From Chitinophagaceae bacterium (lineage in GTDB: Bacteria; Bacteroidota; Bacteroidia; Chitinophagales; Chitinophagaceae): a stretch of DNA of 64,000 nucleotides. Location of the stretch: contig JAYURR010000174.1 in the NCBI GenBank assembly GCA_043756605.1, positions 4,641 to 68,640 on the forward strand. The letters run 5' to 3'. A program made the translations under genes and the position numbers. This document shows, one piece after another, positions 9,701 through 61,378 of the stretch. Under the pieces are notes generated by a model. That model did no database searches. It saw nothing but the letters and a program-made list of their open reading frames with translations, and was not told the origin of the DNA. Numbering within the stretch: position 1 is the first letter of the stretch; every line of letters begins with the position of its first letter.

Positions 9701-12700
9701 CTAATATTTCAATAGCAGTAAAAGATTCGCCGGTTGGATTTACAAATTTGTAAGCAGCCGTTGCCGACAAAACAAGTGGAAAACGTATTACAGTTTTAGC
9801 AGGAATAGTTAAAGTGCCGTTAGATGGAATACCTGAAGACCAGTTTATATCTAAAGGCCTGTTTAAACTGTTATATAACATTACCACAGCCGTATCTTTA
9901 ATAGCGGTACTGCTTCCGGTTGTAGGTACCGGCGAGTAATAGGTATTTGAATACCAGGTGGCCGGAAATATAGGTACATCACGTGAGGAGTAATTATCAT
10001 TGCCGCCAAAATGCAGCTCTACACCAATTAATGCCGAAGCTGTAACTGTAGCACCGGATAATACACTGCCATTAACAAATAAAACCTCTCCTTCATTAAT
10101 AGTGGCCGTAGTTTCCAGTGTTCCGTTATTATCCTTATCAATTTCAACAACTGTATTATTCTGTGCTGCTCTTATAAAGAGTGATGTGTACCTGAAATCC
10201 TGGCTGGTAAAGTTCTGGCCTACCGGTATTGTAAATGATGTGCCATAATCTTTAACAGCAGATACATTGGTTTTCATACACTGTACCGCCATAATGGAGG
10301 GTTCTCCACAAACCTGTGTTACTGTTATCTGTCCGCTGGAAGTGATTTTATCTCTTCCATCGTAGAATATATTTGAAACAACCCTGGGATTGGTAGGCAT
10401 TGTATTGTCTAATACAATATTGCCACCGGCAGGGATAATATCAGAAGCATATCCCGGAACAATACCGTTGTAAGGGTTACCATCGCCCCAAACTTTGGTG
10501 GTAGCCTGTAATGGATCCAATGCATTTAGTTCATAACCATCCTCCCACTCATCCCATACTATCGTCATGCCGGGATATGGCATTTTCATACTGATAACCG
10601 TTCTTATATTATTACTTGGCGTAGCCGGACTTCCGGAACTATCCAATGCCATACGGGCTTCATTTTCTGAAAAAGGCAGATAAAACACGTGTGTCTTTGT
10701 TGCTTCCGAGCAGGGATCTATCAGCAAAGGATTTACTGTTAAGTAAATATAAGCTGTTGCACAGGCATTTGTACTATCACAAATCTGGTAAACCAGTGTA
10801 TCCTTACCTGCATAAGATCCATTGGGCAGATAAACCACTTTACCGTTTGATATAAAGCCGGTTCCGTTTCTGGGCTGTGTATTTATGGCAAGTGTAGAAA
10901 CTTTCATATTATTATTGGGATCATAATCATTACCCAAAACATCTACTATTATTGGTGCACCACCTGCCCCGGTGGCAGAATCGTTCAATGCTACCGGCGG
11001 ACAAACCGAGCATATATCAAAAGCCAGCAGATCAGAGTTTTTAATTAAATTTTCATATCCTTCCCTGGCTGTCGCCATCAGGTAATATAAATTGGTTGAG
11101 CCGGGGGTTGTCCATACATATTCATAAGTACGGGTGCAGGTAGTTGAATCTACACAGTTTACCGCATAAGTAGTACCCGGAGGATTAACTCTTAAATCCA
11201 TACCGGTAATATCGCTATAACCAAACGGTGTGGTAACTTTAGCCCTTACATAATAAGTGCTGTTTACCAATCCACTGGTTCTGATGGAGCCGGCCGGATA
11301 TGGTGCATTGTACACATTAAAACTAACAAAATCGATAAAGGTAGAAACCGGCAGCAGGCTTATCCTGGAGGGTTTGCTTGCGCTGTGGTATTCTATCTGG
11401 AACTGTACACCCGGTTGGGCAGAAGTAATATTTAATGCTACAGCCTGGCCCGATGGTACAGTTACGTCGGCACCAAGTGTACCAGTCCAGCTTAATATTT
11501 TTGTACTACTATTATATACGGGGTTGCTTAAACTTATAAAAGTTGTACTGCCGTATTTTAAACTGGCTGTTATAGCCGGATTTACCGGCATGGTACCACT
11601 GGTTACGTTAACATAAACCAGCATTTGTATGGTTTGTGCTTTAATTACCAGGTCGTTGCATAATGCCGGGCTTTGGGTAAATGTGATTGTATTTTGAGAT
11701 GCTGCTGGCTTTATGGGCACTGCTCCTAAAGCCCAGTCTGTTGATGCAGAAGTCCAGTTCATAATTGTAGTTGCTGCACCTGGCTCTGTACTTCCTGCAC
11801 CGGTAATTTCATTACCCGAACTCATATTCCATCTTTGTGTTTGCCCGGCAGTAACTGTAACTGGTTGATTTCTTATTGAAACAACATCATAAACCAGTTC
11901 CCCGCCTGCAGATGTTACATTTACGGACGGGTTTGTTGAACCTGCCTGTTGCGATGCAAATGTTCCTAGCGGAGTAGTTTGGTCTATACCGGTATAGGTT
12001 GTTACATTTACAACTGCACCCCTATCGGGAGCCGAGCTGAAATTAACAACCACATTAGCTGTGCCCGAAGGTGGATTAATCAATCGATAAAGCGCAATAC
12101 GGGCATTGCTATTTAAATTGTTTTCACCAACCAGTGTTAGTGCTGTTGCTCCATAAGTAACACTGGTAACGGTTCTGTTCTTTTGCGAAATACCCACCAG
12201 CATCAGCCTGTTGGCACCTGTACCGGTTGTATGTGCTACGGTTATTGGCATAGTGTTTCCGGTAACCGTATTTGACGCATCTATGGCAATGGGCGCCGTT
12301 GTTGATGAAATGGCATAAGAGGTAGCTGTAGTAGTAATATTAGTTGCTACCGGGTCTATCCTGTCGAGCAACATACCCGGATCGGATAAATACAGCGGCG
12401 TTTGCACCACCGATGGGTTGGCATTAACTATATGTGATGAAGTTGCAGGACCGTTACAACCAGTAGCCGAAGCCGTGATTGCCGAAGATCCAAACCAACT
12501 TGCCACCCAGGTAACCTGTCCGGTAGTTGTATTAATGGTATTACCGCCGGCTAAACTGGCAGCATCTAAACTATAAGTAATGCCTGTATTATTGGTAGCC
12601 GTAGCCGAATAAGTTATGGTTGCAGCACCCTGTGTACGCACCGATTGTATGCCCAACCCAAATACCGGAGTACCTACGGTTGGTGTAATAGTTACGGTAT

Positions 12701-15700
12701 GATTGGCTGTTCTGGGGCCATTGCAACCAGTTGCTGATGCAGTTATGATGGTACTGCCGGTCCAGTTTGCAACATAAGTCACTTCTCCGGTTGAACTGTT
12801 GATTGTATTTCCGGCAGTTATAGCAGCAGCATTCAAACTATAAGTTATACCTGTGGTATTTGTTGCACTTGCAGTATAGGTTACTGTAGCTGCTCCCTGA
12901 CAACGGGTAGATGTGGCACCCAAGGTAAATACCGGAGTACCTACAGTTGGGGTTATAGTTACCACATGTGCTGCAGAAGCAGGCCCATTACAACCTGCTG
13001 CAGAAGCTGTAATGATTGTTGTACCACTCCAGCCTGCAACATACACAACCACACCGGTTGTTGAATTGATGGTGTTACCACCTGTTATGCTGGCTGCATC
13101 AAGAGAATATGTAATAGATGTTGAATTGGAAGCTGTTGCTGTATAACCTACAAAAGCCCCTCCCTGGCAACGGGTGCTGGCAGCCCCCAATGTAAATACC
13201 GGTGTACCTACTGTTGGGGTTATGGTTACGGTATGGTTAGCTGTTGATGGGCCATTACAACCCGCTGCAGTTACTGTAATAATTGAAGTACCCGACCAGG
13301 CTGCATCATAAGTTACAGCACCGGTTGTTGCATTTATTGTATTACCGCCTGTAATACTGGCAGCATCCAGGCTATATGTTCTTGATGTACTGTTGCTTGC
13401 TGTGGCTGTATAGGTAACTGTACCTGCACCCTGGCAACGGGTGGTTGTAGCCCCCAATGTAAATACCGGAGTACCTACGGTTGGTGTTATGGTTACTGTA
13501 TGTATTGCGGTTCTTGGGCCGCTACAACCGGCGGCACTGGCAGTTATGATTGATGTACCACTCCAGCTTGCAACATAGGTTACCACACCCGTTGTTGCAT
13601 TTATACTATTACCGCCCGATATACTGGCGGCATTTAAAGTATAGGTAATTCCGGTTGTAGTTGTTGCTGTAGCATCATATTGTACTGTGCCGGCTCCCTG
13701 GCATCGGGTTGATGTTGCACCCAATGTAAATACCGGTGTACCAACCGTTGGAGTTATAGTTACTGTATGTGTTGCAGTTGATGGCCCGTTACAACCTGTG
13801 GCAGTAACTGTAACTATTGTGGTACCAACCCAGCCTGCAGCATACGTTACTGCACCGGTGGTTGTATTGATGGCATTACCACCAGTAATACTGGCAGCAT
13901 CCAGGCTGTAAGTAATACCTGTATTATTGGTGGCATTTGCAGTATAAGTAACTGTATTAGCATTCTGGCAACGGGTTGATGTAGCCCCCAAAGTAAATAC
14001 AGGTGTACCCACGGTTGGGGTAATGGTTACAGTATGTGTTGCTGTTTTGGGGCCATTACAACCTGTAGCAGTTACTGTAATGGTACTTGTTCCTGTCCAT
14101 GCAGCAACATAACTTACTTCTCCTGTTGATGAATTAATACTGTTTCCACCAGTAATACTGGAAGCATCGAGGCTATATGTTATGCCGGTGTTTGTTGTAG
14201 CTGTTGCTGTATAGGTAACATTTCCGGCTCCCTGGCAACGTGTAGATGTGGCACCAAGTGCAAATACCGGTGTACCAACTGATGCAGTTATGGTTACCAC
14301 ATGCGTTGCAGATGTTGGCCCGCTGCAACCTGCTGCTGTTGCTGTAATGGTAGTAGTACCACTCCAGCCTGCGGCATAAGTAACCGCACCGGTTGTTGTA
14401 TTGATTGAATTACCCGGGAATGCATCTGTTGTTGCATCCAGGGCATAGGTGATACCTTGATTGTTAGCTGCGGTTGCAGTATAAGTTACGGTAGCAGCTC
14501 CCTGGCAACGGGTAGATGTGGCACCCAGCGTAAATGAAGTTGCTCCCAGAATATCGTAGGTTGTAACCGTATGATTGGCCGATCTTGGCCCATTACAACC
14601 GGTTGCAGTTGCTGTAATTACTGAGGTTCCGGTCCATGCGGCAACAAAAGTAACATCACCGTTAATATTATTAATGGTATTACCACCAGCAAGGCTTGCG
14701 GCATCCAGGCTATAAACAATACCTGTGTTATTGGAAGCTGTAGCAGCATATGAAACAGTACCGGCACCAATACATCTTGATGAGGTTGACCCCAAACTAA
14801 ATACAGGGGTGCCAACACCTCCTGTAATAGTAACAATATGCGTTGCTGTTTTAGGGCCTCCACAACCGGTAGCAGTTGCAGTTATGGTAGAAGTACCAGT
14901 CCATAAAACCCAATAGGTTACTGCACCGGTAGCGGCGTTTATAGTATTGCCCCAGGTTAAACTGGTTGCATCCAGGCTGTAGGTTATTCCTGTACTATTG
15001 GAAGCTGTTGCTGTATAGGTTATAGTTCCTGCTCCAAAGCAACGGCTTGAAGTTGCTCCTAATGCAAATACGGGAGTGCCTATGGTTGCTGTAGTTGTAG
15101 CTGTATGATTAGCAGTTGTTGGCCCATTACAGCCCGAAGCTATTGCTGTAATGGTTGAACTGCCAACCCAGGCTACCGTATAATTTACCAATCCGTTTGC
15201 TGAATTGATTGTATTACCCGCAGCTAAACTGGCCGCATCTAAACTGAAAACAATGCCTGTATTATTTGATGCTGTAGCACTGTAATTAACATTTCCACCA
15301 ACCTGGCAACGTGTTGATGTGGCACCCAAGGCAAATACCGGAGTGCCTACTGCAGCTGTAATGGTTACTGTATGGTTTGATGTTCGGGGCCCGTTACAAC
15401 CTGCTGCACTGGCCGTAATGATGGTTGACCCTGTCCAGCCAGCTATATAGGTAACATCGCCGGTTGTAGCATTGATGGTATTACCACCGGTTAATGCTGC
15501 GGCATTCAATGTATAAGTTATGCTTGCTGCATAGGTTGCATTGGCAGTATAAGTAACCGTTGTAGCCCCCTGGCATCGGGTTGATGTTGCACCCAGCGTA
15601 AATACCGGATTTTGCACATCATCATTTGTTGTGGCGGTATGTGTGGCTGTTGATGGGCCGTTACAACCAGATGCTGTAGCTGTTATAATACTAACTCCAA

Positions 15701-17558
15701 CACGTCCTCCATTATAAAATACAGCACCGGTAGATGCATTTATTGTAAGCCCGGCCGCAATACTGGCTGCATCAAGGCTATAAACAATAGCTGTTGAGTT
15801 GGCCGCTGTGGCTGCATAAGTTACTGTAGCACTTGCCTTACAACGGGTAGATGTTGCGCCCAGCGTAAATACAGGTGTAGATACTGTAGGGGTAATAGTA
15901 ACGGTATGCGATGCCGTTTTAGGGCCATTACAACCTGCCGCCGAAACTGTAATTAAAGAGGTTCCGCTCCAGGTGGCTACATAAGTTACATCGCCGGTGG
16001 TTGCATTTATTGTATTGCCTGCGCCCAAACTGGTTGCATCAAGGGCATAAGAAAAACCTGTTGCATTGCTTGCAGTAGCATTATAATTTACGGTACCTGC
16101 TGCCTGGCAGCGGGAAGATATAGCTCCCAGATCAAAAGCAGGGGTGCCCACAGTAGGGGTAATGGTTACGTCATGTTCGGCAGTTAAAGGGATGCCACAA
16201 CTGGCTGCGCTGGCCGTAATGGTTGATGTACCGTTCCAGCCAGCCACATAAGTTACGGCACCGGTTGTTGCATTAATGGTGTTACCAAATGAAATACTCA
16301 ATGCATCCAAACTATAGGTAATACCTGTTGTATTGGAAGCAGTGGCTGTATAGGTTACTGTACCGGCACCCTGGCACCGGGTTGATGCAGGGCCATCATT
16401 AAATACTGGTGTAGTTGCAGGCACACTTGTTGTAGCCAGGTGATCGGCCGTTGTTGGGCCGTTACAACCTGCTGCCGCAACAGTAATTGTAGATATGGCT
16501 TCCCAATTTGCTGTATAGGTAACTGCACCTGTAGCTGCATTAATTGAATTTCCTGCCGCCTCACTTACCGCATCTAATGTATAGGTTAAACCGGTATTAT
16601 TAGAAGCAGAGGCTGTATAGGTTACTATGCCTGCGCCCTTACAACGCAAAGATGTGCCGCCCAGGCCAAATACCGGGGTACCCACATTTGGTGTAATAGT
16701 AACAGCTATGCTGCCTGCGCCTGCACTCCATGCAAAAGTTGTATTATCCCGTGAGCGTACGTAATAAGTACCTGATGTATTAACTGTATAAGATGAAGTT
16801 GAATTAGCTGTACTTGTACCCGCAGCAGTTGTTTGCCAATACCAGGTTTCGCCAACGGGTGGCGTACCTGTAAAATTCATGGTTACACCTGGCGAAGCAC
16901 ATTGTGGCGAATTGGAAGTTGGGTTGGCCGGATTAGCAGGCACAGGTACAGCGGTATTTACAGTACCATTTAAAGTAACTTCATCATTTCTCCAGTTAAC
17001 TAACAGCGCAGTATTTACATTTAATAAATAAAACCTGAACGTAACCGCACCAATATTTGTAAAACTGCCTGCTGGCAGGTTGATTACATCGGTTTGCATA
17101 ATTAATGTAACCGTATCCACAGCAATATTTGAGGTAAAATTATCAAGACTTGAACGTAAAACCCATTTGGTAACACCGCTTGCCGGGTCTCTATCATAAC
17201 GCTGGTTGAGAGACAGTTGAGTAAGTGTTAGATTATATCCTGAGGACGGCGTAACGGTAAATCCAAAGTACTCACTGGTGTTTACTGTATTGGTACCATT
17301 TGCCCAGTCCTGCGTTTCAAACTCGTTCGTCCGGGCTTTACAACTTATTCCTCCGGCAAAAACATAGTTACTAAATGTTGCATTAGCAGGCTGGGTGGTA
17401 ACAGCGGGATTTTGATGAGGGCAGGTTCCGAATCCTGTAAAGGAATAGTAACCCAACTGAGCTGTGGTTGTTAAGCTCAATGTAAACACCAAAAACCCTG
17501 TTATAAGGGCCTTTAATTGCTTTTGGAATATATTCCGGTTAGTAAAAATTGGTTTCAT
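6765..17558 (-). CDS. Giant (~3597 aa) T9SS type-A-sorted surface protein/adhesin
   Basis: Start moved to ATG 17558 ([11 protein letters not shown]...[12 protein letters not shown] signal peptide). Contains 16 Thr-rich Ig/PKD-like repeats, cadherin-like Ig domains (VALNDSA...DVLGND; ANDDYA...ILIND), an IgGFc-binding-like region, an SdrD-B-like domain and a C-terminal LPVKL...APNPFTG...KLIKQ sorting domain. Confidence 0.9.
   Translation of the reverse strand: [3597 protein letters not shown]
12420..16694 (-). repeat. 16 tandem 89-aa (267-bp) intragenic repeats
   Basis: Consensus [30 protein letters not shown]...[39 protein letters not shown].HTVTI; tgtaaataccgg recurs at 13191, 13458 and 13725 (267-bp spacing). 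Confidence 0.95.
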
Positions 17559-18017: not shown

Positions 18018-18671
18018 ATGAATATTCAGGATTTCCCTATAACTATCGGTTTAATAATTGCCAACGTAATTTTTTCTTTAATTGGTTTTAGCAATGCCGC
18101 TTTTATTGATAAAACCATTATGTGGCCATACCGGGTTGCCCGGGAGAACCAGTACCACCGTTTTATAAGTTCGGGTTTTTTACATGCCGATTGGATGCAC
18201 CTTATCTTTAACATGTTTACCTTTTTCTTTTTTGGTATTGGTTTAGAGAGTTATTTAAAAGCATACGGCCTTGGTGGTAATATATCTTACCTGTTGTTAT
18301 ATTTTTTGGCATTAATTGTTTCTGATATTCCCAGTTACCTAAAGCATAAAGATGATAATAATTACCGGTCGCTGGGTGCTTCGGGTGCGGTAAGTGCCGT
18401 GGTTTTTGCAGCAATTGTGTTTAATCCGTGGAGCAGTATCCGGCTATACGGTTTTATAAAAATGTCGGCAGCATTATTTGCCGTATTGTACATTGTGTAT
18501 TGTGTTTACATGGGCAAAAAAAACAGCGATCATGTAAACCATGATGCTCATCTGTGGGGATCTTTATTTGGCCTGGCATTTATACTGGTTTTAATAGGCG
18601 TAGTAAGACCCGAATTGTTTACCCCCATTTTTGAACAGCTTAAGCACCCCAGTTTATTTGGCAGAGAATAA
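18018..18671 (+). CDS. Rhomboid family intramembrane serine protease
   Basis: FLHADWMHLIFNM, SLGASGAVS (catalytic Ser), NHDAHLWG (catalytic His). Confidence 0.93.
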   Translation: MNIQDFPITIGLIIANVIFSLIGFSNAAFIDKTIMWPYRVARENQYHRFISSGFLHADWMHLIFNMFTFFFFGIGLESYLKAYGLGGNISYLLLYFLALIVSDIPSYLKHKDDNNYRSLGASGAVSAVVFAAIVFNPWSSIRLYGFIKMSAALFAVLYIVYCVYMGKKNSDHVNHDAHLWGSLFGLAFILVLIGVVRPELFTPIFEQLKHPSLFGRE

Positions 18672-20081
18672 TGATAGCTGCAATATATTTTTAGCGCTGT
18701 CCGTTATTTTAAACCTATCATCAATACGCAGGCCAACCACCCAGATGATTTTTTTATCCATTTCAATAACCCATGTTTTTTCTTTTTGGGTGAGGGATAA
18801 TTTCTGATCAATTAAAAACCGACTTAGTTTTTTCTTCTTTTGCATGCCCAGCGGATAAAAATAATCGCCGGGTTTGCATTTGCGGAGGAGTAAGGGGAAT
18901 TTTATTTCAGATGCATTTACTTGGGCGATTTGGTTTGAGGTTTGTAGTTGGTGGTTGGTGGTTGGGAGCAGTTCAATATTAATTGAACCCTGCTGAAAAT
19001 CAACTTTTATATCATTTTTTTCTATAAAAATATTTTGCGCCTCTATAGTTTTATTTGGCGCAATAATAAGCCAGTTGCGGTTTTTAATGATGCGGTGTGT
19101 GGCTGATGAAATATATTTTCCGGTTTCGCTTTTTAATAAATCAACAACTTCATTTGTTTGATGTGCTGTAAAACCGTAGTCTTTTACAATCTCGTAAAGT
19201 ATTGTGTGCAATGCTTCGGTTTTCTGTAATTTTAAAACAGGGATATGTATTTCGTTGCCTTTTTGCTCCAGTAATTTTTTTTTGGCAAGATGTACAGATT
19301 GCTGGTACAGCGTTTCAATTTCCCGGAAACGTTCAATATTGTTCAGCAAATTATCCTGCACCTGCGGAAACACTTTTTGCAGATCGGGAATGAGTTGGTT
19401 GCGAAAATAATTGCGGGTGTATTTATCGGATGCGTTGGAAGAATCTTCCACAAAATTTAAATTATTTGCTTTTGCAAATGCAGCAATGTCTTCTTTTTTG
19501 GCAAAGAGTAAAGGCCGGATAATATTGCCTTGTTTTGGTAAGATACCATGCAGCCCATTAATGCCGGTGCCTTTAAAGAAATTCATTAAGAGGGTTTCGA
19601 TGTTATCGTTGGCGTGGTGTGCAGTGATAAGAAAATTGGCAATGGGCAATTGGCAATCCGGCTCTGAAGTTTCAATCTCTTTTGCATTTTGCATATTGCC
19701 TATTGCCAATTGCCCATCGCCCTTTGCATATTGCATATTGCCTGTTAACTCTGCAAACCAGTTGTAACGCAATTCCCTGGCGGCAACCTGTATGCTGAGT
19801 TTATTTTCGGTTGCAAATGTTTGTGTGTCGAATTTTTTAACCTGTACTTCAACATCATATTTTTTACCAAGTTCTTTTACAAACGCTTCATCACGTTCGC
19901 TTTCATCTCCACGCAATTGAAAGTTGCAGTGAGCAATGGTAAAATCGTAACCAGCCTGTTTGCAGAGTTCGCAAAGCACTACACTATCTACTCCCCCGCT
20001 TACGGCAAGCAACAGCTTATCTTTTGGTTGAAAAAGATTTTTGTGTTTGATGTATTGCTGAAATTTTTCTAAAAGATTCAT
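18654..20081 (-). CDS. tilS: tRNA(Ile)-lysidine synthetase carrying a repeat-derived insertion
   Basis: AVSGGVDS PP-loop, AARELRY, TAHHANDNIET, YTRNYFR, C-terminal KKKLSRFLID. Confidence 0.96.
   Translation of the reverse strand: MNLLEKFQQYIKHKNLFQPKDKLLLAVSGGVDSVVLCELCKQAGYDFTIAHCNFQLRGDESERDEAFVKELGKKYDVEVQVKKFDTQTFATENKLSIQVAARELRYNWFAELTGNMQYAKGDGQLAIGNMQNAKEIETSEPDCQLPIANFLITAHHANDNIETLLMNFFKGTGINGLHGILPKQGNIIRPLLFAKKEDIAAFAKANNLNFVEDSSNASDKYTRNYFRNQLIPDLQKVFPQVQDNLLNNIERFREIETLYQQSVHLAKKKLLEQKGNEIHIPVLKLQKTEALHTILYEIVKDYGFTAHQTNEVVDLLKSETGKYISSATHRIIKNRNWLIIAPNKTIEAQNIFIEKNDIKVDFQQGSINIELLPTTNHQLQTSNQIAQVNASEIKFPLLLRKCKPGDYFYPLGMQKKKKLSRFLIDQKLSLTQKEKTWVIEMDKKIIWVVGLRIDDRFKITDSAKNILQLSLFSAK
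18929..18965. repeat. Heptamer tract inside the 3' part of tilS
   Basis: Coding strand caaccac-caaccac-caactac-aaacctc-aaaccaa, encoding PTTNHQLQTSNQ. Confidence 0.6.
19634..19742. repeat. Heptamer-arm palindromic element in frame inside tilS
   Basis: ggcaatg/ggcaatt repeats (19634-19657) are inverted relative to attgcct-attgcca-attgccc (19695-19717); two ttgcat(a/t) tandem tracts are also present. Confidence 0.85.
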
Positions 20082-20106
20082 ACCCCTGTCCCCTAAAGGG
20101 GAACTT
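20082..20106. repeat. Solo C/G hairpin arm abutting the tilS start codon
   Basis: acccctgtcccctaaaggggaact; on the tilS strand it reads agttcccctttaggggacagggt-ATG, resembling the DUF559 element right arm. Confidence 0.65.
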
Positions 20107-20228
20107 AGTTAATTAGTGTAAAATAATCTGCCTGCAGTATTCCATTCATTCGCTTCAAAAAAAGTTCAATAGAGTTATACTGTACAAGAGTGCGACGCCA
20201 ATGAAGCTGATTAAAGATTAAAAGCCGG

Positions 20229-20675: not shown

Positions 20676-21419
20676 ATGAAGATCTTAGTTTGTATCAGTA
20701 AAACCCCCGATACTACCGCAAAAATAGCCTTCGCCGATAACAATACGAAATTCGCTGCAGATGGCGTACAATGGATCATCAACCCGTACGATGAATGGTA
20801 TGCCCTGGTAAGAGCCATTGAGTTGAAGGAAGCCGATGCTGCAACAATAATACATTTGGTTACCGTTGGAGGTGCCGACAGCGACCCAATCATCCGTAAA
20901 GCATTGGCCCTTGGTGGCGATGAATCTTTCCGGGTAAATGCTGATAGTCATGATAGTTTTTACATTGCATCGCAAATTGCAGAAATTGCAAAAAAAGGCA
21001 GCTACGATTTAGTGTTTACCGGTAAAGAAACCATTGATTATAATGGATCTTCTATTGGCGGCATGGTGGCTGAACTGCTTGACCTGCCCTATGTTTCACT
21101 GGCAACTAAATTTACACTGGAAGGAACGGATGCCATTATTAACCGTGAAATTGAAGGTGGAGAAGAAACCAATAAAGTAGCATTACCGCTGGTGGTTAGC
21201 TGCCAAAAGGGAATGGCTGAACAACGAATACCTAATATGAAAGGCATTATGGGTGCCAGAAGCAAACCATTAACTGCTGTTGAGCCGGTTGCGGTTAATG
21301 CGCTGACAAGCGTTGCATCTTTTGAATTGCCACCTGCAAAGGCTGGAGTAAAATTAGTTTCAGCAGATAATCCTGAAGAGTTGGTAAGATTATTACATGA
21401 AGAAGCAAAAGCAATTTAA
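20676..21419 (+). CDS. etfB: Electron transfer flavoprotein beta subunit
   Basis: MKILVCISKTPDT, INPYDE, GKETIDY, RIPNMKGIMGA; start moved to ATG 20676. Confidence 0.95.
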   Translation: MKILVCISKTPDTTAKIAFADNNTKFAADGVQWIINPYDEWYALVRAIELKEADAATIIHLVTVGGADSDPIIRKALALGGDESFRVNADSHDSFYIASQIAEIAKKGSYDLVFTGKETIDYNGSSIGGMVAELLDLPYVSLATKFTLEGTDAIINREIEGGEETNKVALPLVVSCQKGMAEQRIPNMKGIMGARSKPLTAVEPVAVNALTSVASFELPPAKAGVKLVSADNPEELVRLLHEEAKAI

Positions 21420-21881
21420 TGGATAGTTGATAATGGTATAATGGATAATGTTTTAAATTTATAACATCACTCATTACCAAAACTATACATTATGAAAGAG
21501 AATATTTTAAAAGACAAGAGTTTCAATTTTGCGATAAGAATTGTAAATCTTTATAAATTTCTTAAGTAAGAACATGGTGAATATATTTTATCGCAGCAAT
21601 TAATAAGAAGCGGAACATCAATCGGGGCAATAGTTAGAGAAGCTGAACATGCAGAAAGCATTAAAGACTTTGTACATAAATTGAGTATTGGTTTAAAGGA
21701 AGCAAATGAATCGAAGTATTGGCTTGATCTGCTTTTTGCGACAGAGTTCATTACAAAAAAAATGTACGAATCGTTAAACAAGGATTGTGAGGAGCTTTTA
21801 AAATTGCTTATTGCAAGCGTAAAAACGAGTAAGCTTAAAATTAAATAAATTATCAATTATCCATTATTAAATTATCCATTG
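21417..21881. mobile_element. Heptamer-inverted-repeat cassette carrying a four-helix-bundle gene
   Basis: Left arm taatggatagttgataatggtataatggataatg (21417-21450) includes the etfB stop; right arm aattatcaattatccattattaaattatccattg (21848-21881) ends 2 bp before the etfA ATG. Mobility is inferred. Confidence 0.65.
21492..21848 (+). pseudogene. Four-helix-bundle protein (TIGR02436/23S rRNA IVP family) with an in-frame stop
   Basis: Manual translation MKENILKDKSFNFAIRIVNLYKFLK*EHGEYILSQQLIRSGTSIGAIVREAEHAESIKDFVHKLSIGLKEANESKYWLDLL...; TAA at 21567-21569. Confidence 0.88.
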
Positions 21882-24626: not shown

Positions 24627-25208
24627 ATGAAAAAAATAGAATTGGAAATAGTGGCTTTATCGCACAGCATTACCCAAACCCATTCGTATGCAGTTGTGCT
24701 GGGCGAGTTAAACGGATTACGCAGGCTGCCGATAGTTATTGGCGGCTTTGAGGCGCAGGCTATTGCTGTAGCTTTGGAACGTATGAGCCCAAGCAGGCCG
24801 CTTACCCACGACCTGATGAAGAATTTTATGATGGCCTTTAATGTAGAACTGCACGAAGTGGTTATAAATGATCTGCAGGAAGGAATTTTTTACAGCAAAC
24901 TGGTTTGCAGCTCAGCAAACGATACGGTTGAAATTGATTCCCGTACATCGGATGCTTTGGCTTTGGCTGTACGTTTTGGCTGCCCTATTTATACTTATGA
25001 TAATATTTTAGAACAGGCCGGAATACTGATGGAAGATGATGGCAAACCAAAATCACCCACCACAGTTACAACCGAAACAGTTGGAGGCGATAATTTAAAA
25101 TCATTATCGCTGGAAGAACTGGAAGGTTTGTTGACCGAAGTGCTGGATCATGAAGATTATATAAGGGCCATTGCTATACGGGATGAGATAAAAAGCAGGA
25201 AGAAGTAA
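24627..25208 (+). CDS. Bifunctional nuclease family protein (DUF151) with C-terminal UVR domain
   Basis: RRLPIVIGGFEAQAIA, RPLTHDL, DSRTSDALALA, EDYIRAIAIRDEI. Confidence 0.9.
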   Translation: MKKIELEIVALSHSITQTHSYAVVLGELNGLRRLPIVIGGFEAQAIAVALERMSPSRPLTHDLMKNFMMAFNVELHEVVINDLQEGIFYSKLVCSSANDTVEIDSRTSDALALAVRFGCPIYTYDNILEQAGILMEDDGKPKSPTTVTTETVGGDNLKSLSLEELEGLLTEVLDHEDYIRAIAIRDEIKSRKK

Positions 25209-25341
25209 TGGATAATTGTTTAATGGATAATGGATAATTTTTCAAATTCGTTGCAGTTTTTCAATAGCAAACTTTAAGATACTTAGCATACATTTCCATT
25301 CTAAAACATTATCCATTATAAATTATCTCATTATCCATTAA
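25206..25341. repeat. Empty TAATGGA-heptamer inverted-repeat element filling the stop-to-start gap
   Basis: taatggataattgtttaatggataatggataatt (25206-25239) ... cattatccattataaattatctcattatccattaa (25307-25341); ispE ATG at 25343. Confidence 0.82.
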
Positions 25342-46220: not shown

Positions 46221-47003
46221 ATGCATGTTCCAACAATGGCAGAAATGATGGCGAAGGGTGAAAGCCCCGAAATTTTATTTTGGGTAGGCTGCGCCGGAAG
46301 TTTTGACCAGCGGGCACAAAAAATAACCAAAGCATTTGTAACCATTTTGGATAAGGTTGGTATCAACTACGCCATCTTGGGTAAAGAAGAAATGTGTACC
46401 GGCGATCCGGCCCGCCGTGCCGGCAACGAATTTATGTTTCAGATGATGGCTTACCAGAATATTCAGATTTTGAATGGTTATGGTATTAAGAAAATTGTAA
46501 CGGCCTGTCCGCATTGTTTTAATACATTGGGTAATGAATATCCTGAATTGGGCGGCACTTACGAAGTAATTCATCATGCAACTTTTTTACAGCAATTAAT
46601 TGACGAAGGCAAAATAAAAATGACCGAAGGCGGTACTTTTAAAGGCAAAAAAATTACTTACCACGATAGTTGTTATTTGGGCCGTGCCAATAATATTTAC
46701 GAAGCACCACGCAAAGTGCTGGAAGCCTTGGATGTTTCTTTAGTTGAGATGAAACGCTGCCGCAGCAACGGTTTGTGCTGTGGTGCCGGCGGTGCACAAA
46801 TGTTTAAAGAGGAAGAAAAAGGTGAAATCCGCATTAATATAGATCGCAGTAACGAAGCCATTGCAACCGGTGCCAGCGTTATTGCAGCGGCATGCCCGTT
46901 TTGTAATACTATGATGACAGATGGTGTAAAAAACAGTAATAAGGAAGATGAGGTGCAGGTGTTGGATATTGCGGAGTTGGTTGCTGCATCAATGGCAAAC
47001 TAA
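46221..47003 (+). CDS. (Fe-S)-binding CCG-domain protein (GlpC/HdrB-like)
   Basis: WVGCAG, CTGDP, ACPHC, YHDSCYLGR, LCCGAGG, ACPFC. Confidence 0.9.
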   Translation: MHVPTMAEMMAKGESPEILFWVGCAGSFDQRAQKITKAFVTILDKVGINYAILGKEEMCTGDPARRAGNEFMFQMMAYQNIQILNGYGIKKIVTACPHCFNTLGNEYPELGGTYEVIHHATFLQQLIDEGKIKMTEGGTFKGKKITYHDSCYLGRANNIYEAPRKVLEALDVSLVEMKRCRSNGLCCGAGGAQMFKEEEKGEIRINIDRSNEAIATGASVIAAACPFCNTMMTDGVKNSNKEDEVQVLDIAELVAASMAN

Positions 47004-47034
47004 TGGATAATTTAGTAATGGATAATTGATAATG
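47001..47034. repeat. Solo TAATGGA-heptamer arm beginning with the upstream stop codon
   Basis: taatggataatttagtaatggataattgataatg is 31/34 identical to the reverse complement of 21848-21881. Confidence 0.85.
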
Positions 47035-47091
47035 TTTTATGTTTCAGACACTTCATGTTTGATTGCAGATACGTCATCTCAAATACAAAAA

Positions 47092-58079: not shown

Positions 58080-59588
58080 ATGTTGAATGTAGCTACCAAT
58101 AAAAAACATGATGAAGCAAGGCAGGGAGAAGCATTTGCCCTGTTTGCCAACGATACAAACCCATACAAAAAATACTTTTACATTGAAAGTTATGGCTGCG
58201 CCATGAATTTTGCCGATAGCGAAGTGGTGGCTTCTATATTAATGGATAATGGTTTTGGTGCCACCAATAATTTTAAAGAAGCCGATCTTATTTTTATAAA
58301 CACCTGTTCTATCCGTGAAAAGGCAGAAACCACTGTACGCAAACGTTTAACAGAATTTCGCCAGATAAAAAAACAAAAACCAGGCATGCTGGTGGGTGTG
58401 CTGGGCTGTATGGCCGAGCGATTGAAAGCACAGTTTTTAGAAGAAGAAAAATTAGTTGATTTAGTAATTGGCCCCGATGCATACCGCAGTTTACCTGCAC
58501 TAATTGAAGAAGCAGAAACCGGCCAGAAAGCAGTAAATGTTTTATTAAGCCGTGATGAAACCTATGCAGATATTGCACCCATTCGCCTTAACAGCAATGG
58601 TGTAAATGCGTTTGTAAGCATCATGCGTGGCTGCAATAATATGTGTTCGTTTTGTGTGGTGCCATTTACCCGTGGCCGGGAACGAAGCCGTGATGCCGCA
58701 TCTATCATCAACGAATGTAAAACCTTATTTGAGCAGGGATACAGAGAAGTAACTTTGCTGGGGCAGAATGTGGATAGTTACCATTACACAGCCCCCCCGG
58801 CCATCCAAGGGGGGAGTTTGGAACACCCTGCAAATTCAAATAGCACTGTAAATTCGCAGGGTGCTTTTTCTCCCCCCTTGGGGGGCGGGGGGGCTGCTGT
58901 TACTTTTGCCATACTTTTAGAGCAGGTCGCACTAATCTCTCCCCTCCTCCGTGTACGCTTCTCCACTTCGCATCCAAAAGATATTACCGATGATGTGTTG
59001 CACACAATTGTGAAATACGAAAACATCTGCAATTATATTCACCTGCCGGTACAAAGTGGCAGCACACGTGTGTTGCAAATGATGAACCGCACCTACAGCC
59101 GTGAGTGGTACATTGCCAAAGTAAACCGCATACGGGAGTTGATACCGCATTGTGGCATTTCAACTGATATGATAACCGGTTTTTGTACCGAAACAGAGGA
59201 AGATCACCAGCAATCTTTAAGCCTGATGGAATACTGCAAGTACGATCTGGCTTATATGTACTTTTACAGCGAACGGCCGGGAACCCTTGCTGCCCGTAGG
59301 TTTAAAGATGATGTACCGCTTGATGTTAAAAAACGCAGACTACAGGAAATGGTTGACCTCTATCGTGGCCACTCATTACTTGCCATGCAAAAGGAAGTGG
59401 GCAAAACCCGTAAAGTATTAATTGAAGGTCCATCTAAAAAAAGTGAAAACGATTTGTATGGCAGAACCGATCAGAATAAAGTAGTGGTATTTGAAAAAGG
59501 AAATTTAAAGGTGGGGGAATATGTAGAAGTACAAATTACATCTTGCACAGCAGGAACATTGATAGGCAAAACCCCCTCCGCCCCCTGA
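58080..59588 (+). CDS. miaB: tRNA-2-methylthio-N6-dimethylallyladenosine synthase carrying an internal insertion
   Basis: [29 protein letters not shown] radical-SAM motif, C-terminal TRAM domain. Confidence 0.97.
58789..58896. repeat. 108-bp palindromic element in frame inside miaB
   Basis: cagcccccccggccatccaaggggggag ... ctccccccttggggggcgggggggctg, with an inner caccctgc/gcagggtg pair. Confidence 0.88.
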
Positions 59589-60058
59589 AGGGGGAACTTT
59601 GTACTCTGCTGATGCAAAGATTTTTTATTTTGTTTCGAAAGTCGGAATGAATATGAAAGAAAATATGTTTTACGGAGCCGGGCATTTGATTTTTGAAAAG
59701 GCGAAGAAGTTGAGAAACAATGTTACGCCAACTGAAATGATTTTATGGGGAAGATTGAAAGAATATTTTCCCAATGTAAAATTCAGAAGGCAACATCCAA
59801 TTTCATTTTATATTGTTGACATATATTGTCATTCTAAAAAACTGGTTATTGAAATTGATGGAAGCATACATGATTTGGAAGAAATAAAAATAAAAGATGT
59901 ATTAAGACAAAAAGAACTGGAGGCACTGGGATTAAAAATCATCAGGTTTACCACAAAAGAAATTACAAACGAATTGGAAGCAGTTTTACAAACAATTGAA
60001 AAACACTTAAAATAATCATACTCCAAAGTTCCCCCTTCAGGGGGCGGAGGGGGTTTTG
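59567..60058. mobile_element. 492-bp element with perfect 35-bp terminal inverted repeats enclosing a DUF559 nuclease gene
   Basis: caaaaccccctccgccccctgaagggggaactttg (59567-59601) is the exact reverse complement of 60024-60058. Mobility is inferred. Confidence 0.78.
59653..60015 (+). CDS. DUF559 / Vsr-like endonuclease domain protein
   Basis: AKKLRNNVTPTEMILW, KFRRQHPI, VDIYC, LVIEIDGSIH, IRF. Confidence 0.92.
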   Translation: MKENMFYGAGHLIFEKAKKLRNNVTPTEMILWGRLKEYFPNVKFRRQHPISFYIVDIYCHSKKLVIEIDGSIHDLEEIKIKDVLRQKELEALGLKIIRFTTKEITNELEAVLQTIEKHLK

Positions 60059-60060
60059 TT

Positions 60061-61284
60061 ATGGAACTACAAACAATAAAAAACCGTTTCGGCATTATCG
60101 GCAATTCATCGGGCCTTAACCATGCATTAAATATTGCCGTGCAGGTTGCAAATACCGATCTCAGCGTACTTATCAATGGCGAGAGTGGCGTGGGTAAAGA
60201 AGTTTTCTCACAAATCATTCATGCATTAAGTGCACGTAAACACAATCCATTTATTGCGGTAAACTGCGGTGCCATTCCCGAAGGCACTATTGATTCGGAA
60301 TTATTTGGCCACGAGAAAGGATCTTTTACCGGTGCAGTTGACAGTCGTAAAGGTTATTTTGAAACCGTTAACGGCGGTACTATTTTTTTAGATGAAATTG
60401 GAGAATTACCACTGGGTACACAGGCACGTTTGTTACGGGTGCTGGAAGCCGGCGAATACATACGTGTGGGCAGCAGCAAAGTGCAAAAAACAGATGTACG
60501 TGTTATTGCCGCTACCAACAAAGAGCTGATTGAATATACCCAGACAAATCGTTTTAGAGAAGACTTATATTACCGCTTAAACACAGTGCCCATAAGGGTT
60601 CCGGCATTGCGAGACAGAAAAGAAGATATTTATTTATTGTTCCGCAAGTTTGTAACCGATTTTTCTGATCGTTACAAAGGCAACCCGGTACAATTAGATG
60701 ATGGCGCAAAAGCTGTGTTAATTAACTATCCGTGGCCCGGTAATGTAAGGGAATTGAAGAATATTGCAGAGCAGATATCGGTACTTAGCCAGGATAAAAT
60801 GATCAACACAAATACCATGCAGCGTTTTTTACCCGATCATAATTATTCACGCTTGCCGGTACTGGCTGGCGGCGCAGGCTCGGTAAGCCAGAGCGAATTT
60901 GCAAACGAAAGGGACATTTTGTACAAGCTTTTTTTCGACATGAAAAAAGATGTAAACGAACTTAAGAAAATGTTTTTTGATCTTTTACAAAACCCCAACA
61001 TTGCACAGCATGCTCCTGTTTATAACAATCAGGCATTTGCAGAGCTAAATAACAATGCCCCGGCAAATAATTCATCGGCACCCGTTTTTTTACCGCATAA
61101 TAATGATACGATTGATCACCACGAAGATGTGGAAGAATCTTTAAGCATAGTTGATAAAGAAAAAGAACTCATCATCAAAGCATTAAAAAAACACAAAGGC
61201 AAACGTAAAGATGCATCGCTTGATTTAGGGATTAGTGAGCGTACTTTGTACCGTAAATTAAAAGAGTATGATATTGAAGAGTAA
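60061..61284 (+). CDS. Sigma-54-interaction AAA+ / Fis-family regulator lacking a receiver domain
   Basis: GESGVGKE, SELFGHEKGSFTGA, FLDEIGE, WPGNVREL, C-terminal LGISERTLYRKL. Confidence 0.92.
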   Translation: MELQTIKNRFGIIGNSSGLNHALNIAVQVANTDLSVLINGESGVGKEVFSQIIHALSARKHNPFIAVNCGAIPEGTIDSELFGHEKGSFTGAVDSRKGYFETVNGGTIFLDEIGELPLGTQARLLRVLEAGEYIRVGSSKVQKTDVRVIAATNKELIEYTQTNRFREDLYYRLNTVPIRVPALRDRKEDIYLLFRKFVTDFSDRYKGNPVQLDDGAKAVLINYPWPGNVRELKNIAEQISVLSQDKMINTNTMQRFLPDHNYSRLPVLAGGAGSVSQSEFANERDILYKLFFDMKKDVNELKKMFFDLLQNPNIAQHAPVYNNQAFAELNNNAPANNSSAPVFLPHNNDTIDHHEDVEESLSIVDKEKELIIKALKKHKGKRKDASLDLGISERTLYRKLKEYDIEE

Positions 61285-61287
61285 AGT

Positions 61288-61378
61288 AATTGGCAATGGG
61301 CAATGGGCAATGGGTAATGGGCAACAGCCAATGGGCAAAAATATACTGCTCATTGCTTGTTGCATATTGCTTATTGCC
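61288..61378. repeat. GGCAATG-heptamer inverted-repeat element overlapping the lptE-like 5' end
   Basis: aattggcaatgggcaatgggcaatgggtaatgggcaa (61288-61324) ... cattgcttgttgcatattgcttattgcc (61351-61378). Confidence 0.82.

Follow-up and report, generated by a model that had tools for sequence, protein, structure and literature searches.

An in-frame palindromic insert in the MiaB gene of a Chitinophagaceae bacterium and its probable relationship to a family of DUF559 nuclease-associated elements

Background

In-frame palindromic selfish DNA has for 25 years been a Rickettsia curiosity for which no responsible enzyme is known. The Rickettsia palindromic elements (RPEs) are about 100-150 bp long and are found in frame within unrelated housekeeping genes, with which they are translated (Ogata et al. 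2000, summarised in PMC10969869). Prokaryotic MITEs are small, non-coding and multicopy, possess terminal inverted repeats similar to the ends of a larger, coding element and occasionally form in-frame fusions (PMC10969869). In the REPIN/RAYT systems two inverted hairpin units and a spacer give one long hairpin, and inverted units also frame a single small gene, that of a Y1/HUH transposase; solo units and doublets coexist, persistence within lineages is long, and the REPINs themselves are extragenic (PMC3116915, PMC3337134). Vsr-fold homing endonucleases, such as I-Bth0305I, belong to the same fold clade as Vsr and DUF559 (PMC3424549), and together with free-standing homing genes they are associated with filled/empty polymorphism at precise sites of conserved genes, with no target duplication.

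Here we report on a palindrome located inside a conserved tRNA-modification gene, and on a nuclease element immediately downstream of that gene, in a 64-kb stretch of Chitinophagaceae DNA (64,000 nucleotides, hereafter the window). A preliminary description had proposed that the palindrome is an empty derivative of the nuclease element inserted in frame. Using comparisons with related loci (denoted by L and a number), protein and RNA family searches and the source metagenomes, we find that the palindrome is real and has overwritten a native loop of the host protein. On balance we favour its membership of a hitherto undescribed family of nuclease-associated elements.

Results and discussion

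The palindrome and its host gene

The palindrome lies directly after the GQNVDSY motif of MiaB, a placement on which repeat search, folding and the list of open reading frames agree with the preliminary description. The features of the gene and the insert are:

58080-59588, + strand: MiaB coding sequence, 502 aa, tRNA i6A37 methylthiotransferase (open reading frame list; Pfam UPF0004, Radical_SAM and TRAM)
58789-58896, no strand assigned: 108-nt imperfect palindrome, a single long hairpin of ~45 pairs with its central loop near 58839-58848
58789-58816, + strand: left terminal unit, consisting of CAG, a C-run (58792-58798), a degenerate second C-run plus loop (GGCCATCCAA), a G-run (58809-58814), AG and then TTTGGAAC
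58824-58863, no strand assigned: central stem CACCCTGCAAATTCA / TAAATTCGCAGGGTG with a 10-nt loop, the AT-richer element interior
58869-58896, + strand: right terminal unit, consisting of the local hairpin CCCCCC-TT-GGGGGG (58872-58885), CGGGGGGG (58886-58893) and CTG

Repeat search recovered two arm pairs, 58789-58813 / 58872-58896 (25 nt, 80%) and 58793-58816 / 58870-58893 (24 nt, 88%), so the terminal inverted repeats have 24-25-nt arms with 80-88% complementarity in a full-length hairpin, as in MITEs; the length of 108 nt also lies within the MITE range of less than ~500 bp, and the only coding is by the MiaB frame that reads through. The segment folds with -79.4 kcal/mol as RNA (z = -8.8; -76.7 kcal/mol in a fold of precisely these 108 nt) and -43.8 as DNA (z = -8.2), and 0 of 200 shuffles folded equally well. 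Both arms are laid out as a C-run, a C-run–loop–G-run hairpin and TTTGGA; the local hairpins of the two terminal units reach -13.8 and -14.5 kcal/mol, and CGGGGGGG of the right unit forms base pairs with the left unit's outer C-run. The left unit of the L001 insert is in the intact form CCCCCCCGGCCCCCCAAGGGGGG. In the window, which has a GC content of 39%, C- or G-runs of at least five are clustered only at the palindrome and at both ends of the DUF559 element described below. Stem pairs are mostly invariant in the four species compared, and the two pairs changed on both sides, both in the central stem, are too few to argue covariation from. Three of the six reading frames across the palindrome are open, and a weak five-pair match to the intrinsic terminator pattern lies at 58884-58898, inside MiaB. 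The palindrome is not an assembly artefact, because two public runs each yielded an independent contig spanning 58653-59042 with zero differences at ordinary depth and homologous inserts are present in the separate assemblies L001, L081 and L002.

The position within the radical-SAM domain, likewise given in the preliminary description, is supported by Pfam and by the alignment with Bacteroides uniformis MiaB (7mjv; E = 2e-155), which consists of two blocks split at the insert and breaks exactly at the loop RFEKPDGETI of that structure. The insert thus follows the GQNVDSY strand of the radical-SAM barrel and precedes the next helix. In the AlphaFold model residues 229-272, between the strand 223-228 and the helix 276-284, have a pLDDT of ~25 and are devoid of secondary structure, and the loop is accordingly predicted to be disordered. 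From the conservation of the frame we infer that the insert is translated as a Pro/Gly-rich segment of 36 residues, which is probably disordered. The span of 36 codons originally proposed holds as a length of 108 nt but not as a set of codon-aligned boundaries, since 58789 falls on a second codon position. An intein would have to be longer than this Pro/Gly/Ser segment of 36 residues, and the Pfam search gave no intein domain. Thus, as in RPEs, a palindromic repeat is in frame in a protein-coding gene at a place compatible with the fold, and its location within the MiaB open reading frame is not the extragenic one of REPINs. Two metatranscriptomes contain 4-6% of the words, which we judged uninformative.

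The neighbouring DUF559 element and its family

A loaded element, i.e. one carrying a nuclease gene, lies ~672 bp downstream of the palindrome (58896 to 59568), matching the 670 bp initially estimated:

59568-60057, + strand: loaded DUF559 element of ~490 bp, filling the entire space between MiaB and the next gene, with ends AAAACCCCCTCCGCCCCCTGAAGGGGGAACTTT and AAAGTTCCCCCTTCAGGGGGCGGAGGGGGTTTT
59647-60015, + strand: gene for a 122-aa DUF559 (Vsr-fold PD-(D/E)XK) nuclease, an intact open reading frame (Pfam PF04480, E = 5e-29)
60061-61284, + strand: sigma-54-dependent activator gene, its ATG 7 nt past the G-run of the element's right end (60053), forming a conserved 'home' junction

The element ends lie in 74-nt inverted repeats (59567-59640 / 59985-60058, 80%), and numerous differing loose ends of metagenome contigs, at 59568 and at 60053-60060, mark its boundaries. 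Its left end supplies the last codons of MiaB (..TPSAP) and the TGA stop at 59586-59588. The DUF559 protein matches PDB 3hrl (E = 3e-11), has 313 homologues and contains the family-invariant residues D58, E69, D71 and H75 (the conserved D/ExD/H). As the gene framed by the units is DUF559 (PF04480), the Y1 transposase domain of REPIN/RAYT systems is absent from it. The order MiaB, DUF559, sigma-54 activator recurs in L008, L022, L070, L082, L172, L175-180, L181 and L183-185.

In total there are 14 distinct loaded copies with near-identical ends at no fewer than four unrelated junctions, the ends of the window element recurring at the 13 others, and none has a target duplication. Both ends are at a fixed distance in all 14 copies examined, i.e. 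the ends travel with the open reading frame. The sites occupied by the family as a whole are the MiaB loop, the junction of MiaB and the sigma-54 activator, the 3' end of smpB and the nuoD/nuoH spacer; the window protein is 93% identical to that of the smpB copy and 73-76% identical to those of other MiaB-junction copies. In the source metagenomes the element ends have a word depth of 1200-2700x, as against 17-25x for the flanks, and are adjoined by many different flanking sequences; contigs that join the left end straight to the right end represent ORF-less forms. The terminal hairpins of L187 and L183 have been swapped for another sequence, likewise able to fold into a hairpin, implying that the structure of the ends matters. 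Solo units occur in L039, L010, L019 and L114, upstream of a regulator in L002 and L004, and in the window itself, where they provide the third and last family member:

20082-20107, - strand: solo terminal unit, degenerate and of the kind found in the DUF559 element (ACCCCTGTCCCCTAAAGGGGAACTT; E = 8e-4 in an nhmmer search with the DUF559-end profile)

This unit abuts the start codon of TilS, and the TilS gene carries a different in-frame palindrome.

The preliminary description had counted 21 matches in 32 positions between the left palindrome arm and the DUF559 terminal repeat. The best ungapped 32-nt windows against the DUF559 ends reproduce this likeness, the left arm scoring 22-23/32 and the right one 20-21/32, against a mean of 14.3 for mononucleotide shuffles (p <= 0.001, a lenient null where sequence is rich in runs). 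Arms and DUF559 ends have a common layout and the TTTGGA motif, and in the loaded element L173 one end (CCCCCCCCACCCCCTAAAGGGGGAGTTTGGAG) takes a form between the DUF559 and MiaB-insert types. A profile of the DUF559 ends matches the arms of the MiaB inserts of L037, L081, L026 and L002 with the orientation and register expected (E = 5e-4 to 7e-3), and gives no significant match to the arms of the window's own palindrome (E = 2.2). The family link is therefore drawn from the shared architecture, the intermediates and the better-preserved inserts of relatives. The MiaB palindrome belongs to a different subfamily from the adjoining element, of which it would be a relative rather than a copy. We rejected a local copying of the neighbour's ends, since in the window, L082 and L070 the end subfamily of the loop insert differs from that of the DUF559 element next to it. 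Hence, of the proposed empty derivative, ORF-less forms do exist in the same metagenomes, and the derivation from the neighbouring copy is not upheld. We likewise rejected, as a strict link, the idea that the insert is an immunity site for the nuclease next door, as in T4-like intronless homing, because element and filled loop occur independently: the element is accompanied by an empty loop in L008, L022 and L175-180, and the loop is filled in L001 without a downstream element and in L002 with a solo right end only. In L183/L184 and L120 the two arms of a palindrome belong to different subfamilies. At 90% likeness the MiaB-type palindrome has single-copy depth in the source metagenomes, and a search of the insert peptide against 1.84 billion cluster representatives (a weak negative, as representatives alone were covered) gave only one unrelated repetitive protein and no other host protein; neither result points to an active MiaB-type family.

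Filled and empty alleles of the MiaB loop

Alignment with close relatives revealed empty alleles, the closest being L003 and L004, whose MiaB proteins are 87% identical to that of the window and have a 10-residue loop ([FH]WVDEQK..). Relative to these, the following stretch is peculiar to the filled allele:

58786-58898, + strand: stretch of ~113 nt with no counterpart in empty alleles, against ~25 nt (GGGTGGATGAACAAAAAGAACTGGTA) in relatives

Seven native codons, forming the loop that links the GQNVDSY strand to the next helix, have been overwritten by the element. When L001-L004, L006-L008 and others are aligned to the window as DNA, ~25 native bases (7 codons) prove to be lost and the net gain is 29 codons. 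No target duplication was found at the insert: there is no direct repeat, and ~25 native bases are missing instead. The insertion initially proposed is thus borne out in that empty alleles lack a counterpart, but it was not a simple one. The same replacement is seen in L120 (filled) as compared to L137, and every GC-hairpin insert has taken the place of the same 7 or 8 native codons rather than being set beside them.

The MiaB insert is not a one-off, as the loop is occupied in many lineages: among 161 species-level MiaB loci, 27 have long loop inserts and 41 have shorter or decayed ones. A same-length loop lacking palindromic DNA, which would have spoken against an insertion, was not found, similar-length loops being palindromic or visibly decayed and the nearest alleles without the palindrome being short. 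Across the MiaB family the loop varies from 8 to 62 residues. The frame is kept, with no stops, in all 68 lengthened loops, and the four closest inserts differ in length by 3, 6 or 9 nt. On a simple neighbour-joining tree of the conserved protein, filled alleles are scattered almost randomly (22 state changes versus 25.4 for shuffled labels), and filled alleles of different subfamilies have empty alleles as nearest neighbours; for example, the filled L120 differs by 4% from the empty L137 and by 14% from the filled allele closest to it. Over the 993 kb of MiaB-centred loci, the 30-nt loop contains 14 intact hairpin units and the MiaB 3' junction 10 (nine, plus one binned within MiaB in L070, where the MiaB reading frame runs into the element), with only two elsewhere.

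The inserts of the window, L001, L081 and L002 have a common junction sequence, and those of other lineages have arms that are decayed, partly deleted or chimeric (L026, L046, L120, L136). The loop also gains unrelated simple repeats (of the QQTTDNGQ.. type), and repeat DNA of at least three unrelated kinds is found in it, so part of the 'hot spot' is plain tolerance. The inserts diverge by 0.11, 0.17 and 0.30 where fourfold-degenerate MiaB sites diverge by 0.32, 0.42 and 0.53, i.e. 2-4 times more slowly. Comparison of six sequences in 20-codon windows gave no dip in divergence beside the insert that would mark a co-conversion tract, and a search for population polymorphism in the source metagenomes gave no contig that skips the insert. 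As in homing systems, filled and empty alleles are site-specific and without target duplication, both at the MiaB loop and at the MiaB/sigma-54 junction.

Origin of the insert

In our assessment the palindrome is somewhat more probably than otherwise a non-autonomous, ORF-less member of an undescribed family of small GC-rich nuclease-associated elements, on which DUF559 would act in trans in a homing-like copy-in. The elements of such a family would consist of two inverted 'double C-run + hairpin' terminal units, and its loaded members would carry the gene for a DUF559 (Vsr-fold) endonuclease of about 120 aa between ends of the same kind. The nuclease, acting in trans, might recognise or cut the structured ends or preferred target sites, and recombination or repair synthesis might then place a copy of the element in the break. 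We infer this homing-like copy-in, and not cut-and-paste transposition, as the mode of movement; it would explain the missing target duplication, the lost target bases and the repeated use of a few sites. The insert would have been retained because it is in frame, stop-free and in a loop whose length can vary from 8 to 62 residues. Against this reading, DUF559 is a putative engine that is not recognised as a transposase. To our knowledge, homing endonuclease genes are normally without long inverted repeats.

The strongest alternative, which we regard as possible though rather unlikely, dispenses with targeting: elements would land at random, the MiaB loop being a rare harmless in-frame coding position from which an insert, when present, is not easily lost, and the recurrence would result from selection and from allele exchange by recombination. 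The wide range of loop lengths, the unrelated repeats within the loop and the in-frame palindrome of TilS are in keeping with it, and the inserts of the window, L001, L081 and L002 could represent one event, with L003 and L004 emptied by recombination. It is countered by the far higher frequency of intact units in the 30-nt loop than in the ~6 kb of flank per locus, intergenic DNA included, although insertions ought to do the least damage there, by the replacement of the same codons throughout, and by the nearness of filled alleles of different subfamilies to empty ones.

Slightly less probable still, and in our view unlikely, is a movement of REP/REPIN-like hairpin units of ~30 nt by an unlinked enzyme, with DUF559 as a passenger or frequent landing place and the MiaB palindrome as a unit doublet. 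The anatomy of two inverted units and a spacer forming one long hairpin fits this, REPINs having been described as exactly such doublets (PMC3116915, PMC3337134), as do the solo units and the palindromes of mixed subfamily, which look as if units arrive singly. But the loaded copies all have both ends at the fixed distance, at four or more sites, and no Y1/HUH or other transposase gene was seen near the units in the window; moreover, ends framing DUF559 mirror the REPs framing RAYT genes, which points to DUF559 being a partner and not a bystander.

It is improbable that the insert has been domesticated, either as an mRNA hairpin slowing or gating translation of the radical-SAM and TRAM regions or as a flexible Pro/Gly loop of the enzyme. 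Its slow divergence and the invariance of most stem pairs in four species would agree with such a role, but recent spread or arm-to-arm conversion accounts equally well for slow divergence, arms decay elsewhere, and many close relatives have no insert. That the very stable hairpin, despite lying inside a coding region, is skipped by the ribosome in the manner of mitochondrial 'byp' elements or removed from the RNA, giving a MiaB protein without the segment, is hardly credible, as the frame and the absence of stops are kept in 68 of 68 lengthened loops with indels in threes, which would be needless in a skipped segment, and an Rfam scan of the whole window gave no family match, introns included.

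Returning to the nuclease-associated family, a wider proposal, which is plausible but which we advance only tentatively, is that DUF559 nucleases with double-hairpin ends constitute an undescribed class of Bacteroidota mobile elements, distinct from IS, introns and inteins. Together with ORF-less derivatives they would be copied by nuclease-initiated repair into a few precise sites, among them the codon-precise MiaB loop, which would have been overwritten independently in at least 12 lineages. In the literature on DUF559 with inverted repeats, homing or MITEs and on in-frame palindromes in Bacteroidetes we found no description of this element. If correct, the proposal would give a role to part of a very large DUF family annotated only as 'endonuclease domain-containing protein', and a single protein of 122 residues with two short DNA substrates would be enough to test the mechanism. 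Inserts of this kind make conserved proteins longer and more variable, introduce stop codons (as in MiaB) and break metagenome assemblies, and therefore need to be recognised by annotators and phylogeneticists.

Comparison with known systems

The element family shares features with several systems. Double-hairpin elements or GC clusters of fungal mitochondria are also short, GC-rich and mobile, have two hairpins and sometimes lie in genes or beside endonuclease ORFs; they are organellar, unrelated in sequence to the MiaB insert and of unknown mechanism. Of the MITE traits listed above, the small size, the non-coding nature, the terminal inverted repeats and the in-frame fusion recur here; the likeness of the repeats to those of a larger coding element may be a further one, and high copy number is seen for the DUF559-type ends, the MiaB-type sequence being at single-copy depth. 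Target bases are lost with no target-site duplication (in loaded elements likewise), and the larger partner encodes no recognised transposase. REPIN/RAYT systems are approached in the paired hairpin units, the single small framed gene, the coexistence of solo units and doublets and the long persistence in lineages; in contrast, the framed gene here encodes a PD-(D/E)XK DUF559 nuclease and not a Y1/HUH transposase, and the MiaB copy is inside a coding sequence. With Vsr-fold homing endonucleases and free-standing homing genes there is agreement in the fold clade and in the filled/empty polymorphism at precise sites of conserved genes. Unlike these, the element is outside any intron or intein, has long structured inverted repeats and ORF-less derivatives, and is accompanied by no detected co-conversion tract.

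RPEs offer the further parallel of inserts that are sited where the fold tolerates them and exist in various states of decay. The sequence of C and G runs is presumably unlike that of any RPE, and the hosts are Bacteroidota (Chitinophagaceae / Ferruginibacter) rather than Rickettsiales. RPEs are spread over many genes, whereas one precise MiaB site has been hit repeatedly here, with replacement of native codons; and a candidate autonomous partner, the DUF559 element, is at hand, none being known for RPEs. Thus, free-living Bacteroidota now display the phenomenon with a candidate partner gene adjacent, alleles that are clearly empty or filled and a single small target that has been hit again and again, and, if our reading is right, this would be the first RPE-like system of 'selfish DNA in proteins' with an identifiable engine.

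Results and discussion

An in-frame palindrome within MiaB

The principal features of this part of the analysis are:

58080-59588, MiaB ORF of 502 codons with UPF0004, Radical_SAM and TRAM domains
58789-58896, imperfect palindrome of 108 nt within the MiaB ORF (repeat finder and folding)
59568-60057, loaded element, a DUF559 nuclease ORF between structured ends
59647-60015, DUF559 ORF (PF04480, E = 5e-29; PDB 3hrl, E = 3e-11)
20082-20107, solo degenerate terminal unit of the DUF559-element type (profile match 20088-20110, E = 8e-4), abutting the TilS start codon

The preliminary description reported an in-frame 108-bp palindrome in MiaB, and the repeat finder, folding, ORF and domain analysis and independent contigs all confirm it. 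The arms of 24-25 nt show 80-88% complementarity in the repeat finder, and the entire 108 nt form a single hairpin of ~45 pairs, with a folding energy of -79.4 kcal/mol for RNA (z = -8.8) and -43.8 kcal/mol for DNA (z = -8.2); 0/200 shuffles were equally stable. In the window, which has a GC content of 39%, C or G runs of at least five cluster only at the palindrome and at both ends of the DUF559 gene, 672 bp downstream. The palindrome has the length of 36 codons as described, but it begins on the second base of a codon. The insert peptide starts directly after GQNVDSY(HYT) and reading continues through the palindrome, three of whose six frames are open; from the sequence we infer that the insert is translated. 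It matched no Rfam family, intron or other. Contigs of independent public runs span the site at normal depth without differences, and homologous MiaB inserts are present in separate assemblies, which rules out an assembly artefact.

Replacement of native codons

The nearest MiaB proteins come from metagenome-assembled genomes of Ferruginibacter and Chitinophagaceae and are of two lengths. The short ones (469-475 aa) have [HY]W[VI]DEQK[ED].. as their loop, and in the long ones (~490-514 aa) a variable segment of 25-45 residues takes its place. Alignment with close relatives yielded the empty allele, i.e. the loop lacking the palindromic insert, in two loci, L003 and L004 (87% identical). In the DNA alignment the window has ~113 nt (58786-58898) against their ~25 nt; the flanks match base for base, seven native codons are missing and no direct repeat flanks the insert. 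The palindrome is thus an insertion, as had been proposed, but more exactly a replacement in which seven codons were lost. In an unrelated event, locus L120 has 149 bases in place of 26 native ones in the empty L137 (4% protein difference), and the same seven or eight codons are replaced by every GC-hairpin insert.

The alignment to the solved MiaB structure of B. uniformis (7mjv) is interrupted once, pairing query 24-240 with chain 11-226 and query 271-497 with chain 227-453. This puts the insert in the loop RFEKPDGETI of that structure, after the strand that closes with GQNV(N/D)SY and before the following helix of the radical-SAM barrel. The insert also falls in this barrel loop in an AlphaFold model made with 72 close relatives, which is of moderate quality as a whole (mean pLDDT 63): residues 229-272 have pLDDT ~25 and lack secondary structure between strand 223-228 and helix 276-284. 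This loop, which varies from 8 to 62 residues over 161 loci, is permissive and lies on the active-site-bearing side of the barrel.

The neighbouring DUF559 element and its copies

Inverted repeats of 74 nt, with the outer 33 nt being AAAACCCCCTCCGCCCCCTGAAGGGGGAACTTT, frame the DUF559 ORF. MiaB takes its stop codon, TGA, from the left-end hairpin's loop and terminates within the element (59572-59588), its last residues TPSAP also coming from the left terminal unit, and a TPSAP-type tail is common to L008, L022, L175, L181 and L183. On the other side, the ATG of the next gene lies 7 nt past the right-end G-run. We recovered 14 distinct loaded copies with near-identical ends at four kinds of site, and target duplication was found in 0/14.

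Sites of the loaded copies of the DUF559 element
Site 1, MiaB / sigma-54 activator, n = 10
Site 2, smpB / convergent serine dehydratase gene, n = 2
Site 3, peptidase gene / deoxyhypusine synthase-like gene, n = 1
Site 4, nuoD / nuoH, n = 1

The window DUF559 protein is 93% identical to an smpB-site copy and only 73-76% to other MiaB-site copies; hence, the gene has moved between sites or genomes. The DUF559 copies of L008 and L022 are disrupted (frameshift; stops), and L002 and L004 retain only a solo right end before the regulator's ATG. At the MiaB/regulator and nuoD/nuoH sites, the right ends of the elements and these solo ends lie 1-7 nt before a start codon. In sediment metagenomes containing the source genome, element-end words reach a depth of 1200-2700x versus 17-25x for the flanks, many differing sequences abut the ends at 59568 and 60053-60060, and in several contigs the left end runs directly into the right one with the intervening 421-429 nt absent, giving ORF-less DUF559-type palindromes. 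Contigs of 0.5-1 kb carry many of the DUF559 homologues, which is what an assembly-breaking repeat should produce. The names 'cyclase' and 'HisF', given by JGI to many of the 120-aa DUF559 proteins (P0121, P0127, P0131, others), seem to have been transferred from an adjacent or fused gene.

In the right ends of L187 and L183/185, another hairpin sequence replaces CCCCC-TTCA-GGGGG, with the outer CGGAGGGGG retained. These substitutes (L187:1575-1605, CCCGACC-AGG-TCGGGA; L183:1578-1608, CCTCCGC-AAACC-GGCGGAGG) still form hairpins, which suggests that the hairpin matters as a structure.

Probable kinship of the palindrome with the DUF559 element

MiaB arms and DUF559 ends have a common layout, an outer C-run, a short linker, a C-run–loop–G-run hairpin and then (A)GTTTGGA. 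The earlier count of 21/32 matching arm positions was reproduced at 22-23/32 (p <= 0.001 against mononucleotide shuffles, a lenient null for such sequence). A profile built from 14 DUF559 ends scored E = 1e-17 and 7e-16 on the two true ends of the element and missed the MiaB arms of the window (E = 2.2); it matched the better-preserved insert arms of L037, L081, L026 and L002 (E = 5e-4 to 7e-3) in the correct orientation and register. Further, the left end of the loaded element of L173, CCCCCCCCACCCCCTAAAGGGGGAGTTTGGAG, bridges the two types. From the common layout, these profile matches and the bridging end, we conclude that the palindrome probably belongs to the same family as the DUF559 element, at subfamily distance. 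Derivation from the adjacent copy is rejected, as in the window, L082 and L070 the end type of the loop insert is not that of the element beside it; of the proposed empty derivative of the nearby nuclease element the kinship is supported, but that copy is not its source. With these corrections, the earlier interpretation is supported overall.

We infer that DUF559 is the trans-acting enzyme of the family, with nuclease-initiated copy-in by repair. Residues D58, E69, D71 and H75 of the protein show no variation across 32 homologues, and the Vsr/DUF559 fold clade counts among its members a homing endonuclease of a group I intron (PMC3424549). A main rival is that the units form a REP-like system and are moved by some other enzyme, as yet unseen.

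Other repeats in the window

TilS, a tRNA-modifying enzyme (ORF 18654-20081), has its own in-frame palindromic insert (19632-19745, minus strand) of ~35 residues, ..GNMQYAKGDGQLAIGNMQNAKEIETSEPDCQLPIA.., which splits the Pfam PP-loop match in two; its DNA folds at -44.6 kcal/mol and consists of GCAAT/TTGCC-type repeats. A AATGGGCAAT-type repeat occurs at 61288-61339 and 19634-19743, is translated at the LptE N-terminus (VIGNGQWAMGNGQQPMG) and is a second dispersed family entering coding sequence. At 12424-16703 a 267-nt unit is repeated in tandem ~16 times, with copies 63-80% identical to the reference one; this is presumably a repetitive surface-protein gene. AT-rich dispersed repeats on TAATGGATAAT / ATTATCCATTA, direct and inverted, lie at 21406-21460, 21839-21880, 25195-25340 and 46990-47044.

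Recurrent occupation of one loop

The most surprising element is the repeated codon-precise colonisation of one MiaB loop. The 161 species-level loci, from genomes and metagenomes, comprise 93 short, 41 intermediate and 27 long loops, and all of the long and intermediate ones keep the frame to the conserved VTF.. helix; the four closest inserts differ in length by 3, 6 or 9 nt. Judged by the peptides they encode, the GC-rich palindromes that make up the long loops fall into four or more end subfamilies (including PPxPQGG.., ..APPSEGFGEA, PSISPEGGGNGE../..VSPTGGDLEGA and a CCCGAC-type). Such palindromes occur in every state of decay, some with mixed-subfamily arms (L183, L120), and several intermediate loops are single units (e.g. 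VSPTGGDLEGA in L039). On a neighbour-joining MiaB tree the filled state changes 22 times against 25.4 expected with shuffled labels, and the nearest neighbour of a filled allele is often empty.

A second rival is pure tolerance of the loop, without targeting. CAGACAA-like non-palindromic simple repeats (e.g. QQTTDNGQQTT) lengthen it in L005, L012, L021, L043, L172 and L181, and since unrelated repeats also gather there, tolerance is part of the explanation. However, intact units under a strict definition in 993 kb of MiaB loci number 14 in the 30-nt loop, 10 at the MiaB 3' junction (nine plus one binned in-MiaB, L070, whose ORF extends into the element) and only 2 elsewhere; this contrast with neighbouring intergenic DNA speaks for genuine site preference or repeated re-invasion.

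A third rival is domestication of the insert. Among the window's locus, L001, L081 and L002, inserts diverge by 0.11-0.30 per site versus 0.32-0.54 at MiaB fourfold-degenerate sites, and by fourfold-site distance the empty L003 and L004 are as close to the window as the filled L081. Three explanations are available, one of which must hold: constraint on the insert (e.g. by arms correcting each other, or by selection), its spread among lineages after their split, or recovery of the empty alleles by recombination. Stem covariation is too sparse to choose among these, and no co-conversion tract was seen at the insert.

Comparison with known systems

In the literature, incompletely covered here, we found no account of inverted-repeat-framed DUF559 genes or their ORF-less derivatives. 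Unlike a MITE, the MiaB palindrome lacks a target duplication. The phenomenon is like that of the Rickettsia palindromic elements (PMC10969869) and the anatomy like that of REPIN/RAYT (PMC3116915, PMC3337134), but it is a member of neither, because partner gene, host and sequence differ.
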